DNA of 64,000 bases from an uncultured Defluviitaleaceae bacterium (lineage in GTDB: Bacteria > Bacillota > Clostridia > Lachnospirales > WRBF01), in contig CAZBLK010000009.1 in assembly GCA_964492715.1 (NCBI GenBank), positions 27,653 through 91,652 of the forward strand, given 5' to 3'. Of this stretch, positions 18,001 to 24,000 are shown in pieces; the stretch's first letter is position 1; each line of letters begins with the position of its first letter. Position numbers: made by a program.

Positions 18001-21000
18001 TCGAACTAATCACTCCAGTAGCTATGGAACAAGGTCTTCGTTTCGCTATCCGTGAAGGTGGCAAAACTGTAGGTGCTGGTTCAGTTGTTACTATTAAAGC
18101 ATAATTGGGGCTTCCCATTAAATAACAAAAAACGGCTGTTTAGCCGTTTTTTTGTTATATTCTTTACATAGAGGTGGTTTAAATTAATGATAAAGACCAA
18201 CCAAGTCACAACAACGTACCCTTTAAACACATTATCAAATTATAAGTATGCAGTTATCTTTGCTAAATACCAAAACAAGTGGCTTTATCCACGACATAAA
18301 GAACGAACGACGTTTGAAACAGCAGGTGGTCACATAGAAAAAGGGGAAACACCTTTAGAAGCTGCAAAGCGTGAGTTTTATGAGGAAACAGGTGCAACGA
18401 AATTTCAAATACGTGCACTTTTTGACTACCTTGTGGAACCAAGCGGATATCCACCTTCCAGTGGTCAAGTTTTTTATGCCGAAGTACAAGAACTGTCCCA
18501 AATACCAGAAAGTGAAATGGCAGAGGTACAGTTTTTTGAAACTCTGCCCAATTGCTTAACATACCCTTTAATTACGCCTATACTTTTTGATAAAGTTGTT
18601 GAATTAACCAAATAAAAAAGCGTTCCCCATATGGCAAGCCATAACAGGGAACGCCTTTGTTTTATTGTAATAAAAACTAAAAACCAACTGGAATACCAAG
18701 AAGCATCCAAGCAACGAAAAATACAGTCCAACCAACCAAGAAGGTGAGTGAGTAAGGAATCATCATAGAAATGACAGTACCAATGCCAGCGTCCTTCTTG
18801 TAAATTTGTACAAACACTATAACCATTGCAAAGTAGCTCATAAGCGGTGAAATAATGTTTGTTGAACTGTCTGCAATTCTGTATGCAGTTTGAACAACAG
18901 CAGGGTCAATGTTAAGGCGCATAAACATAGGAATGAAAATTGGCGCCATAATAGCCCATTTTGCAGAAGCAGAGCCAAGGAACAAGTTTATAAACCCTGT
19001 TATCAAAATGAATGCAACTAACAGAGGAATTGTTCCAATGTTTGCCGCTTTCAAAAAGTCTGCGCCCAAAACAGCAATTATTGTAGCAAGCTTTGAGTAG
19101 CTGAAATAGTTGATAAACTGTGCCGCAACAAATGCCAAAACAAGGTATCCGCCCATTTTGCTCATTGCAGATGTCATGTGTGACGCAACTTCTTTTTCAT
19201 TTTTAATTGTACCAGCAACTTTTCCGTACACAACCGAAGGAATGAAGAAAAGCAAAGATACAATAGGAATTAAACCGTTAATAAACGTTGAACCGTTTAT
19301 AAGTGAGTTTAAAAAGTCGGGTTGTTCCAAATTTCTAAGGAAAGAGTTTGGCAATGCAATAAGAATTATTAAGCCAACAATTAAACCTACGAGTGTCCAG
19401 TTTGCAGCTGAAAGTGCCTTTTTCTCTCTGTCCGAAATTACTTTTAAGCTTGAATCTCCACCGTCAGAGCCTTCATATTTTCCAAGACGTGGCTCAATAA
19501 TTTTTGTTGTAATTAAAGTACCAAGAATTGTAATTAAAATAGTGGAAGCAAACATGAAGAGATAGTTTGCAGTCGGAGCAATGTTTACGTTTGGTTCAAA
19601 AATGTGTATAGCTTCATTTGTAATGCCTGCAAGCATTGGGTCGATTGTGCCAATTAAAAGGTTTGCACTAAAACCGCCCGAAACACCAGCAAAAGCCGCC
19701 GCAAGCCCAGCAAGCGGGTGTCTGCCGTAAGCCATAAACATTAGTGCGCCAAGCGGAATTAAAATAACATAACCAGCGTCGCTTGCAATGTTTGACATAA
19801 TTCCAAGAAAAACAACCATTGGAGCAAGAAGCTGACGTGGCGTGATGCTAACAATTTTTTTAAGTGATGTACCTATGTAACCAGAAGATTCAGCGATGCC
19901 AATGCCAAGCATACCAACGAGAACAACACCCAAAGGAGCAAAGCCCGTAAAGTTTTTAACGGCATTTTCAAGTATGTAACTTATGCCTGCCCCATTTAAT
20001 AGAGAAACAGCCGTAATTGTTTGCAAGCTAACTTCTTTTGTTGCTGAATCATAAATGTCTGCAGAAACAGAAACCCCAGCCGCTTCACACAAAGCAGAAA
20101 TTATAATAACAGCCAGAGCCAAAATAGCAAACAATGTGACTGGGTGAGGAAGCTTGTTGCCAACAGCTTCAATTCCGTCAAGAGCTCTTTCAGTAAAGCT
20201 TTTTGAAGATGAATTTGGTTTTTTTGCCATATATTTGCCCCCTTTTTTTGAATAGAATAATAATATATAGTATATAAGGTTTTGTCAACTAAAATAACTA
20301 AACAATTTGTCATAGCAAGTACATATTTTTTTTAAAACTGTTATTTATGTGAAATAGAATAACACTAGTTTTAGTTTTATTTTTATTTATATCTATATAA
20401 TATAAAAATCAGCCTAATACGACGGCTTATTTTCCAGTTTTAAAGTTAAATGACTATAAGCCGACAGAGAACTATTTTTCCTACCACAACGCTCATGTAT
20501 TTGCAACTCAACTTGAATAAACTGTTCACCATTTTGCGTCAAAAAATCGTTGAAGCGTTAATTAATTTTGCCGAAAAATGGATTGGTGACTATAAAAACT
20601 CAAATTGCTATAACCTAATTATTTACTTGACACCACAATTAACATATGTTACTATTAACATATGTTAATAAAATAAATATTTGGGAGGTAACTATGAACA
20701 AAGCATTTAAAACATCTGAGGGCAGAGAAGCAGTAATCGCTTATTACGACATGCTGTTAAAAAATCTTACCGTGCCTTATGAGGAAACAACCGTAGAAAC
20801 GTGCTGCGGAAGCACTTCTGTTATAACGGCAGGTGATGAGTCAAATCCGCCCATTGTTTTGCTGCATGGCAGCAGTATTAACGCTACTATGTGGGTTAAG
20901 GATATAAGCGACCTTGCAAAAAGCTACAGGGTTTACGCCCCTGATATGCCAGGTGAACCTGGGAAAAGCTGTGAAACCCAGCAGTCATTTGAAACCACAG

Positions 21001-24000
21001 CGTATGCCGATTGGCTGTATGACGTAATGAATGGCTTAGGTATACAAAAGGCTGTTTTAGCGGGAGCTTCTCTTGGTGCGTGGCTTGGGGCGATGTTTGC
21101 AATTAATTACGGTGAAATGGTAGAAAAGCTCATACTTCTGTGTCCTGCTGGTATTGGTTCGCAGAACCATGCGTTTAAAGAAATTGCGTTTAATCTTCTT
21201 TCCAAAGGTGAGATGGGTGTAAATCTTTTATTTGCAGAAATTAACGGCGGTGTGGATGTGCCTGAACCTATTCTTAACTATAACAAACTAATCTCAGCTG
21301 TTTTCAATGCAAGGCAGGAGGTTATACCTGTCTTTTCCGATGAGGAGCTAAATAAAATCACAATGCCCAGCTTGCTTATCGTCGGAGCAAAAGACATTAT
21401 GCTAAATTCTAAGGAAACAGCGGAACGCTTTGCAAAGTGCGTTCCTAATGCAAAAACTATTATGCTTCCAGATGCTGGACACTCGCTATATGGATTGTCG
21501 GCGGATATGATGGAATTCATAGAAAGGTAGGTGTGAATATGTCACTTGGATACGCAATTTTAGGTATTTTAGGGAAAACTCCGATGAGTGGGTATGATAT
21601 AAAAAAGCTGATGCAAACAACTGATTTTATGCACTGGTCGGGTAATAACAATCAAATTTACAAAGCTTTGTTAGAGCTTGCAGACGAGGGATATGTCACC
21701 TCGGAGGTACAAGAACAGGACAGCCTGCCAAACAAAAAGCTATACCATATCACTGCCGATGGAAAAATGGCGCTTAAACGATTTATCTTGTCGCCCCCTC
21801 ATATGCCGAGCTTTAAAAACCCGTTCCTGATACGGCTTGCCTTTTCAGACGCACTTGACGAAGCAGAGTTACTCGATTTATTAACGAGGTATGAAACAGA
21901 GGTAAAATTACAGTGTATGCTTTGCAAAAACACAAAAAACAATGCCTTGGCTACCGAACAATCAAGGCGTGAAGCCCTTGTACTGTCAGCGGTTTATCAA
22001 AATGCCGCTAACATGTACGAATGCGAGCTTGCGTGGGTGCAGGAACTAAAAAAAGGTTTAGAGAAAATTGTGTTGCAAGGCAACGTAATACAATGTGATA
22101 ATGAAGCTCTGCCTGAAAAGAAACTGCTGTACTACGAGGTGGTAAGCAAACCGAATGGAAGCTATATCCTCATTAATTCCCAAATCCATAATGAAACGGC
22201 CGGACTGTCTGTTTTGGAGGCTTGCGCCGAAAGTGGCTGCAATTTAGTTATACTGTCCCCACAAACGCTTCCGGAAGATTTCTTTCGGCTTGAAAACGGT
22301 TTTGCCCCGTCGTTTTTGCAAAGGCTTTCTAATTACTCCGTTTATGTTGCGGTTTTGGCTGATGCCGACAGCTACAAAGGAAAATTCAAAAAGACACTTG
22401 CAGCCCTAAAGAGCAACAGTAATTTAAAAATATTTGATGATATGGAAAAAGCTGAGGATTGGCTTTTGTCAAGAGAACCATTATGAAAAAGGCATCAACA
22501 ATTATTTTGAGGCTTGCGCTCCTAGCAATGGCTGTGGTTATGCTTGGCATATGCTTTGGAATTGGCTGGACGGTGAATGCCGAGGGCAGGTCGAACTCTG
22601 AATATAGCTATGTGGGTATTATTCTGCTTATAGGTACCTGTTCGGCAGCAGTTCCATTCTTCATTACTCTGTTTCAATCGGCAAAGCTCCTTAGCATAAT
22701 TGACCGTGGGCGTGTATTCTCCGAACAGTCTATTAACGCTCTGTCAGCAATCATCCGCAGCACACTTGTGGTGTTTGCGGTTTGTACCATAGGCGGCCTG
22801 CCGTTTTTTTATATGATAGCCGAAATGGACGAGGCTCCCGGTGTAATCTTTCTTGGTATGGCAATTTCGGGTATTGTGTTTGCCATTGCCATGTTTGCCT
22901 ACGTTTTGCGGTGGCTACTTAAAGAAGCAATTGGATATAAGGAAAGGTGTGCAACATGAACATCACAGAAAAAAACAACGTTGCTGTACTGCAAAGCGAC
23001 AAACTACTTATAACAGACTCACAGTCAGCACTTGACCTTGCTATGACGGTGCAGTATGAAACGCAGTGCAACCAAATTATTATAAACAAAGATAACATTC
23101 ATGAAGATTTTTTCAAACTTTCAACAGGGCTTTTGGGCGATGTTTTGCAGAAATATGTAAACTATCGTATAAGGCTTGCTGTTGTTGGAGATTTTTCGGT
23201 ATACACTAGCAAGCCTCTCCACGATTTCATTGGTGAAAGCAACAAAGGAAACAGCTTTTTCTTTGTTGTAAGTGAGCACGAGGCGATGGCTAGGTTAACT
23301 AAGAGCAGTTCCAGTTTTTAACTATATTGGCAGAAGGAAGCCAAACTCCTAGCCGTTTGGCTTTTTAACCGATATACAGTATTGATTAAAAACGGAATTG
23401 TCATAATTAATGTTCACAACCTTATTTTGTCGCATTGTCATTGTTAATGTTCATACAAACAATAGATTTTTGTGCAATACCAATATCTTTTGCAATCACT
23501 TCACACTTGGTCATTAACAAAAAATATATGTTTTTACCGACTTGTTCGCTTAAACTCTCATAGTTTGCTTGCCCCTTAGATATAACTATATCGGCAGCTT
23601 GATATATGTGCTTGAATTCATCACTTGTTCGACTAATAACCGTCCCCATTGAATCATCGCCGTTACTAATTATATCTGCATACTCATCTATTCCTACAAA
23701 ATAAGCATCATCTTCAATTGAATCGTTTACAACAGGCTTTCCTCTTACGCCAAAGTAAATATGAATAGAGGGATTATACTCCTTAATTTTCTTGATTAAG
23801 AGCTTATCTAAACATATTTCGCCGCAATTATCACCAAGATACAAAAGGATGTTAGCTGATGCAAGGTCGTTAATCAATTTTTCTGTATGATTTATTGTAA
23901 GAGATAAATTATCTACCTCCTCAAAACATTTCATTATTTCTTCTAAACTGCTATTATGGATAGGGTTGAAATCTATTAGGTTGCCTATTATTGCATACTT

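Follow-up and report, generated by a model that had tools for sequence, protein, structure and literature searches.

A four-gene operon behind a single promoter

We analyzed a 64,000-nucleotide stretch of DNA from an uncultured Defluviitaleaceae bacterium (assembly GCA_964492715.1, contig CAZBLK010000009.1, positions 27,653 to 91,652 of the forward strand), referred to here as the window, and describe within it an operon that encodes an alpha/beta hydrolase, a PadR regulator fused to a DUF4180 domain, a DUF2975 membrane protein and a free DUF4180 protein. This locus belongs to a widespread family of putative autoregulators, PadR-s1::DUF4180 fusions whose partner is an esterase; the family is annotated in databases and experimentally uncharacterized. 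Its features are the following.

20627-20655, plus strand: sigma-70-type promoter, with the -35 hexamer TTGACA at 20627-20632, a spacer of 17 nucleotides (nt) and the extended -10 element TG-n-TACTAT, its hexamer at 20650-20655
20638-20669, plus strand: operator, with 14 nt arms ATTAACATATGTTA and TAACATATGTTAAT flanking a central CTAT; it covers the -10 hexamer
20694-21530, plus strand: alpha/beta hydrolase, a relative of carboxylesterase NP (Pfam Abhydrolase_1), with the ribosome-binding site GGGAGG at 20683-20688
21539-22486, plus strand: PadR-s1-type regulator::DUF4180 fusion (Pfam, AlphaFold2 (AF2) model)
22483-22959, plus strand: DUF2975 (YoaS-like) membrane protein (Pfam DUF2975, hydropathy)
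22956-23321, plus strand: free-type DUF4180 protein (Pfam DUF4180)
23340-23366, plus strand: intrinsic terminator, with the hairpin GCCAAAC / GTTTGGC (23340-23361) followed by TTTTT

An independent gene call on the same DNA (locus L001) agrees with these four co-directional genes, whose products are 278, 315, 158 and 121 residues long. The hydrolase and fusion genes are separated by 8 nt, and ATGA start/stop overlaps, read from the sequence, join the fusion gene to the DUF2975 gene (22483-22486) and the latter to the free DUF4180 gene (22956-22959), exactly at the coordinates given in the original prediction, which had been made from the sequence alone. The promoter-like site scores 10/12 in a promoter scan, with a TG upstream of the -10 hexamer, and the terminator hairpin has a folding free energy (dG) of -21.2 kcal/mol (z = -4.7; no shuffled sequence folds as well). 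Since the overlaps are accompanied by a promoter-like site on the 5' side and a strong terminator on the 3' side, the description of the four genes as one transcription unit is correct: a single promoter-operator, as had been predicted, and a single terminator bracket all of them. An Rfam search for a riboswitch or leader RNA in the operon gave nothing meaningful.

An almost invariant operator overlaps the -10 hexamer

Of all findings of the analysis, that of the operator is the strongest. The operator is a perfect inverted repeat, its arms (20638-20651 and 20656-20669) being 100% complementary, and the TACTAT at its centre is the -10 hexamer itself. Within it, at 20646-20661, lies ATGTTACTATTAACAT, a PadR-type motif of the form ATGT-N8-ACAT; the ATGT/ACAT inverted repeat is the canonical PadR operator motif (PMC3506622). 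The operator stands 53 nt ahead of the hydrolase gene, the first of the window operon, and its 26-mer core is unique in the window, where no match is expected by chance.

For comparison, 80 genome loci were fetched around relatives of the fusion, out of 293 GTDB species that carry one, and neighboring genes were detected with hidden Markov models (HMMs) that were derived from the window proteins and refined by iteration over these loci; the operator survey took in 83 related loci. The 26-mer is present in 82 of these 83, with at most 5 of its 23 specified positions mismatched, and random 150 nt pieces of the same loci, used as background, gave best matches with 7-13 mismatches, apart from one exception with 5. 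The exact ATGT/ACAT motif occurs in 47 of 73 homologous promoters, and nearly all the others have a near-exact one. In the related loci the median position of the 26-mer is 47 nt 5' of the fusion start codon, usually directly after a TTGAC-like -35 element, and in 68 of the 83 the 25 nt that precede the operator include a TTGAC-like hexamer. The distance from the operator to the first gene of the operon is fixed across the 82 loci that have it, and the regulator-operator pair is kept across proteins that share only 35-45% identity. In none of the 80 genome loci did a search of the flanking 8 kb on each side find a second copy of the operator.

Because the centre of the operator coincides with the -10 hexamer, and because the operator is conserved together with the regulator, we infer with good support that the regulator would control its own operon by promoter occlusion. 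We also considered whether free-type DUF4180 genes elsewhere form a remote regulon of such PadR proteins; this idea was rejected, as in about 600 kb the operator was found only at loci L088 and L173, both of which carry a PadR gene.

The fusion regulator and its relatives

The N-terminal 180 residues of the fusion make up a complete two-domain PadR-s1 regulator. Pfam scores exceed the respective cut-offs for PadR (PF03551; 52.6 bits versus 27, residues 7-80), for the helical C-domain Vir_act_alpha_C (PF10400; 26.1 bits versus 22.4, residues 93-174) and for DUF4180 (PF13788; 53.4 bits versus 25, E = 2.9e-14, residues 214-309). Together with the AF2 model of the full-length protein, in which the predicted local distance difference test score (pLDDT) is 80.5 and long helices span residues 108-136 and 143-181, these matches give the following layout.

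Residues 7-80 (nt 21557-21778): winged helix-turn-helix (HTH)
Residues 93-174 (nt 21815-22060): helical C-domain
Residues 182-194: disordered linker
Residues ~199-310 (nt 22133-22468): DUF4180 domain

An N-terminal PadR winged HTH and a C-terminus homologous to DUF4180 had both been proposed beforehand, and both proved right, the second by a check set in advance, namely that the C-terminal domain should score as DUF4180-like. The visible motif EDFF..L..G...LQ..NY, said to be common to the fused and free copies, falls within their direct BLASTP alignment, which spans 52 residues at 37% identity (E = 3e-12); across the full length of the domain, identity between the copies is only ~20%. In the AF2 models the fused domain has the same order of strands and helices as the free protein.

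The best solved relatives are S. mutans smu.1604c (3l9f), B. subtilis PadR (5x11) and V. cholerae AphA (1yg2), with E-values from 4e-24 to 4e-21. Like these PadR-s1 regulators, the fusion combines an N-terminal winged HTH with a long helical C-domain, has an ATGT-N8-ACAT inverted repeat as putative operator and lies next to a detoxification-type enzyme gene that it would control. It differs from them in three respects: a DUF4180 domain of 110 residues is added after a flexible linker, the operator of its family is an extended, almost invariant double palindrome of 26-32 bp, and an esterase-like hydrolase takes the place of the phenolic acid decarboxylase as partner enzyme. The PadR::DUF4180 architecture is shared by 275 homologues, the closest of which is 43% identical to the window protein, and the family, with about 300 species-level members, is mostly found in Bacillota (Clostridia, Paenibacillus).

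A hydrolase is the conserved partner of the fusion

The hydrolase matches Abhydrolase_1 with 75.4 bits (cut-off 25.8, E = 7e-21) and carries a GASLG nucleophile elbow at residue 124 and the motif DAGHS, which holds the catalytic His, at residue 260. Its best solved relatives, aligned over nearly the full length with E-values of ~1e-29 to 4e-25, are B. subtilis carboxylesterase NP (4ccw, E = 8e-30; 2r11) and YbfK/CesB (4ccy). The window enzyme shares the GxSxG and His motifs with these closest solved relatives; the match is distant, however, and ester hydrolysis is predicted from sequence. No NCBIfam equivalog reaches its cut-off for this protein.

Across 79 genome loci the hydrolase is the only strongly conserved neighbor of the fusion. 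Homologues with 31-56% identity to the window enzyme adjoin the fusion in 34 of them, 24 being full length and 10 fragments. The order elsewhere is fusion followed by hydrolase, the latter usually starting 0-20 nt past the fusion stop, and it is reversed in the window, where the hydrolase gene comes first. Judged from these neighborhoods, the conserved core of the locus is the fusion with its operator of 26-32 bp, and the hydrolase, which the original prediction had not singled out, is its conserved partner.

The fragmentary hydrolase open reading frames (ORFs) are 41-180 residues long (L008, L040, L042, L043, L050, L051, L061, L074, L076 and L082), a pattern that suggests that the partner enzyme has repeatedly undergone pseudogenization or frameshifts, with the regulator left intact. 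Other genes recur beside the fusion as well. In seven Paenibacillus-type loci (L021-L023, L025, L027, L035 and L036) a gene with TPR and SMI1/KNR4 (SUKH) domains follows the fusion and replaces the hydrolase (for example L025 9007-9972). Class I S-adenosylmethionine (SAM) methyltransferase genes stand beside fusions in Oxobacter and Desulfosporosinus (L002 4937-5668 and L003 5259-5888), and also beside free-type DUF4180 genes in Acutalibacter-like contigs (L085-L090).

The DUF2975 gene is specific to this lineage

The third product of the operon scores 82.5 bits against DUF2975 (PF11188; cut-off 27, E = 3e-23), and hydropathy reveals four hydrophobic, putatively transmembrane (TM) segments at residues 7-25, 46-64, 95-113 and 121-139, so that a small four-TM DUF2975 protein does lie between the fused and free genes. 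An alternative TTG start at 22459 would yield a protein of 166 residues. In a survey of about 165 other loci with HMMs that combined the window protein with 9 homologues, no DUF2975 gene was detected beside a fusion or a free DUF4180 gene in the 80 genome loci, in 80 metagenome loci fetched around the closest relatives of the window free protein, or in L085-L090. Its absence from all surveyed loci of both kinds led us to reject a role for DUF2975 as a conserved signaling partner.

Elsewhere, relatives of the DUF2975 gene are the first gene of a pair. An HTH_26 (YozG-like) repressor gene comes next in L093-L095, and a TetR gene follows the closest relative (L091, 63% identity); DUF4180 was never the next gene among the relatives examined. 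The YoaS-YozG operon has been described as widespread, with putative operators (bioRxiv 10.64898/2026.09.15.751765), and YoaS-like proteins had earlier been counted among likely permeases that form pairs with Xre regulators (PMC2701414). As in these YoaS-YozG and YoaS-TetR pairs, a four-TM DUF2975 gene is co-transcribed in the window with a repressor gene behind an inverted-repeat operator. Unlike in the pairs, this repressor is a PadR fusion encoded upstream, and the gene that follows DUF2975 encodes DUF4180, not an HTH protein. Since DUF2975 has no link to DUF4180 or to the fusion elsewhere and is habitually paired with local repressors, it is probably a lineage-specific membrane cargo captured here by a PadR operon. 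The four-gene set is not conserved as such, and the check set in advance on joint conservation in other genomes went in part against the original prediction: the association of fusion, operator and hydrolase recurs, as does the pairing of fused and free DUF4180, and the set of all four genes has so far been found only here. A 167-residue protein that overlaps the free DUF4180 gene in Acutalibacter (L089) was considered as a further case and set aside, being unlike DUF2975 and resembling, by eye, a 2H phosphoesterase.

Free and fused DUF4180 form separate groups

The free protein is a clear member of DUF4180 (135.3 bits versus a cut-off of 25, E = 1e-39). Other free-type proteins are on average 60.7% identical to it and fused-type domains 32.5%, and all 82 fused domains separate from the free ones in a neighbor-joining (NJ) tree. 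With ~20% identity between the two window copies and separate NJ clades, we rejected the idea that the free copy is a recent duplicate of the fused domain. The two nevertheless belong to the same Pfam family and the same transcription unit, so that a putative sensor-domain family is indeed encoded both fused and free within one operon. This pairing recurs in a second, unrelated fusion lineage, with free-type genes at four of the 80 genome fusion loci (L034, L066, L075 and L082) and at L088, which came from a metagenome look-up. Two further loci, L041 and L059, hold split fusions, the DUF4180 part of which is of the fused type. The fusion-hydrolase-free-DUF4180 operon of L075 (JAJGRE010000002.1), a sequence labelled Calditrichales, is 76-84% identical to that of Bacillota metagenome-assembled genomes, which points to horizontal transfer or to a binning or label problem.

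In the metagenome loci no conserved neighbor of free-type DUF4180 emerged; the largest cluster, that of an ABC-F ATPase whose distance varies, takes in 7 of 86 loci. The nearest relative of the window free protein (69% identity) sits after a UvrD helicase gene. At L102 (3523-5345) a gene for an HTH_17 protein and one for a homologous alpha/beta hydrolase precede the free DUF4180 gene, and in three further metagenome loci an HTH_17 gene lies directly upstream of it. These HTH_17 proteins have 145-159 residues, with the HTH_17 domain at the N-terminus and an unassigned C-terminal half; they are a second DNA-binding family tied to DUF4180. An exhaustive profile search (E <= 1e-3) collected 2,161 DUF4180 clusters at 50% identity, among them free-type domains joined to DUF1653 or, at either terminus, to GNAT acetyltransferases (P0255, P0339, P0233 and P0230). 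In one further member, P0320, part of an alpha/beta-hydrolase precedes DUF4180, which could be an artefact of assembly or of a frameshift. Since DUF4180 thus occurs free, on PadR, GNAT and DUF1653 proteins and beside HTH_17, it behaves as a mobile accessory module of transcription factors and of small-molecule-modifying enzymes.

The AF2 model of the free protein has a pLDDT of 93.8, and its best solved matches in Foldseek are all STAS anti-sigma-factor antagonists, namely TM1081 (3f43, E = 2e-4), RsbS (6jhk), RsfB and SpoIIAA (1til). The model follows their order of elements, beta1-beta2-alpha1-beta3-alpha2-beta4-alpha3-beta5-alpha4, and DUF4180, like STAS, is found both free and appended to other proteins; the TM-score is only ~0.5. 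No STAS Pfam hit (E <= 1) and no PDB profile hit was obtained for DUF4180, an hhalign comparison with hand-entered SpoIIAA/RsbV sequences returned a probability of 0.1, and no genuine STAS ORF was found in the fetched DNA. In contrast to STAS proteins, DUF4180 thus comes without such sequence or profile similarity, without a conserved phospho-site and without kinase or phosphatase partner genes, and on the evidence of the models it appears STAS-like in fold only.

Degenerate fused domains and free genes in two lineages

We scored the degeneracy of fused domains as deviations at the 24 columns for which conservation among fused-type domains reaches 80% or more. The window fused domain deviates at 8 of these (family median 2, 90th percentile 4). 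T253N, G257P and E289A are among the eight and affect positions conserved in both clades; N291K and G293N lie outside them, at positions that are invariant in the free type and 77-79% conserved in the fused type. The window free copy is canonical. An independent clade of six loci (L034, L060, L066, L075, L082 and L088; 67-86% mutual identity, 35-37% to the window protein) has fused domains that deviate at 6-7 columns and are the most degenerate after those of L005 and the window, and five of its six members have a free-type gene in the operon. The PadR protein encoded at L173 shares 72% identity with the N-terminus of the L034 protein and has residue 190 as its last; the fused domain is absent, the operator is the same, and the next gene, 56 nt further on, encodes a free-type DUF4180 protein.

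These loci may be read as a series that leads from a canonical fused domain alone, through a degenerate fused domain with a free copy, to a free copy only. Such a series fits a free protein that supplies the DUF4180 function in trans better than one that competes with the fused domain.

Flanking sequences

The operon is flanked upstream by a divergent AbgT-type transporter gene (18677-20230, minus strand) and downstream by a convergent ARMT1-like gene (23422-24303, minus strand). Between the AbgT gene and the operon promoter lie ~400 nt of AT-rich non-coding DNA (20231-20626), which hold a good match to a minus-strand promoter (TTGACA at 20288, TATTAT ending at 20260). An ORF of 72 residues at 20450-20668 crosses the operator and is probably spurious. 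Further downstream, an ABC-F-type ATPase (24733-26300, minus strand; L001 4150-5717) was called as two ORFs that overlap by 4 nt, one of 442 residues and one an N-terminal ABC_tran piece of 80 residues, and may be a frameshifted or split gene or reflect a sequencing error. The G+C content of the operon is 42.4%, versus 38.5% for the window, a difference too small to be interpreted, and horizontal transfer was not retained on this ground.

A proposed self-repressed operon and its alternatives

The account that we favor, and to which we give a slightly better than even chance of being right as a whole, is that of a self-repressed, detoxification-type operon in which the free DUF4180 protein acts in trans and DUF2975 is cargo. 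A dimer of the PadR-s1-type fusion, or a pair of dimers, would bind the 32 bp palindromic operator and, because the centre of this operator is the -10 hexamer, block RNA polymerase. A signal would release the repressor, the most plausible candidate being a small compound, aromatic or an ester, that resembles what the co-conserved hydrolase acts on or produces, and all four genes would then be made from one transcript. DUF4180 would serve as an extra input module on an otherwise complete two-domain PadR protein and bind a ligand or a partner protein. The free copy would most likely supply or share this function in trans, perhaps as a partner that pairs with the PadR dimer or the fused domain, competition with the fused domain being less likely, and DUF2975 would be a lineage-specific regulated membrane cargo rather than a conserved signaling partner. 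How DUF4180 acts, on a ligand or a partner and in cis or in trans, is a matter of inference.

Several observations weigh against the account. The hydrolase is missing from 45 of the 79 fusion loci, and among the 80 free-type metagenome loci 79 have no related PadR gene nearby, L173 being the only one that has; because of this, the free-type protein probably has a function of its own. L005 (Herbinix), the closest relative of the window, deviates at 10 of the 24 columns and has no free DUF4180 gene within 8 kb, and L060, which deviates at 7, also lacks a nearby free-type gene. The association between degeneracy and the free gene (Mann-Whitney p = 1.4e-4) is inflated by shared ancestry, and the idea of a handover in trans rests on two or three independent lineages. 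Part of this evidence would suit a passenger arrangement, which we consider rather unlikely, in which the free DUF4180 and DUF2975 proteins are mere effectors under PadR control, without feedback, and the fusion senses alone, as in most genomes; the free protein would bind or sequester a small molecule and DUF2975 would be a small permease-like membrane protein. Free-type DUF4180 mostly occurs without PadR and without a conserved neighbor, a free DUF4180 gene is missing from 74 of the 80 genome loci with a fusion (four have a free-type gene and two a split one of the fused type) and none has DUF2975, the fusions to GNAT enzymes are typical of a ligand-handling module, and the only description of YoaS-like proteins is that of likely permeases that come with repressors (PMC2701414). 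Such passengers would leave unexplained that free-type genes join exactly those PadR lineages in which the fused domain is degenerate, and that L173 retains the free gene after loss of the fused domain.

Titration, which the original prediction had suggested, would have the free DUF4180 protein or DUF2975 compete for a ligand or partner, or form inactive heterodimers, and so tune repression by feedback. That fused and free copies of one family are co-transcribed is the part of this suggestion that stood, and the fold does resemble that of STAS partner-switching proteins. A possible parallel is TipAL/TipAS, in which the free sensor domain is co-induced with the DNA-binding form and outnumbers it; there, as with GyrI-like modules, a sensor domain is made both fused and free under one autoregulated promoter. 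TipAS, however, arises from a start inside the gene for the fused form and does not differ from the fused domain, whereas the free form in the window is a separate gene from a different clade, only ~20% identical to the fused copy, and the regulator is a PadR and not a MerR protein. The fused copy has moreover lost the conserved residues listed above, which makes equal competition for one ligand unlikely; the fused-plus-free arrangement is rare, and DUF2975 is never found with DUF4180 elsewhere. Nothing specific speaks for titration by either protein, the pattern of decay favors complementation or replacement in trans, and we hold the suggestion to be improbable. We see just as little prospect for a membrane-gated partner switch that works without phosphorylation, in which a STAS-like free DUF4180 would shuttle between the decayed fused domain and DUF2975, and DUF4180 would dock on PadR repressors in cis or in trans; in this reading DUF2975 would stand where a repressor does in the YoaS-YozG and YoaS-TetR pairs. 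A phosphorylation-dependent version, with DUF4180 as an anti-anti-factor phosphorylated on the loop Thr before helix 2, deserves hardly any credence. It could draw on the Foldseek matches and on a Thr-Gly before helix 2 that is placed as the STAS phospho-serine is. This Thr, however, is conserved in only 67% of free-type and in 89% of fused-type domains and is Asn in the window fused copy, ~165 loci show no conserved neighbor gene for a kinase or a PP2C phosphatase, nor does one stand beside the window operon, and the STAS likeness lacks a signal at the sequence level.

Significance

PadR regulators control genes for detoxification, drug efflux and virulence, and to our knowledge the characterized members all sense their ligands through the winged HTH and helical core alone. 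The locus described here is an uncharacterized variant of this known regulator type, to which the window adds lineage-specific DUF2975 and free-type DUF4180 genes. The practical value of the operon, probably a xenobiotic or ester response module, is modest. With its third domain, its near-invariant operator and its esterase partner, the family would nonetheless offer an easy system in which to find a first function for DUF4180, and the series of loci, if confirmed, would clearly illustrate, in nature, how a sensor domain passes from action in cis to action in trans.

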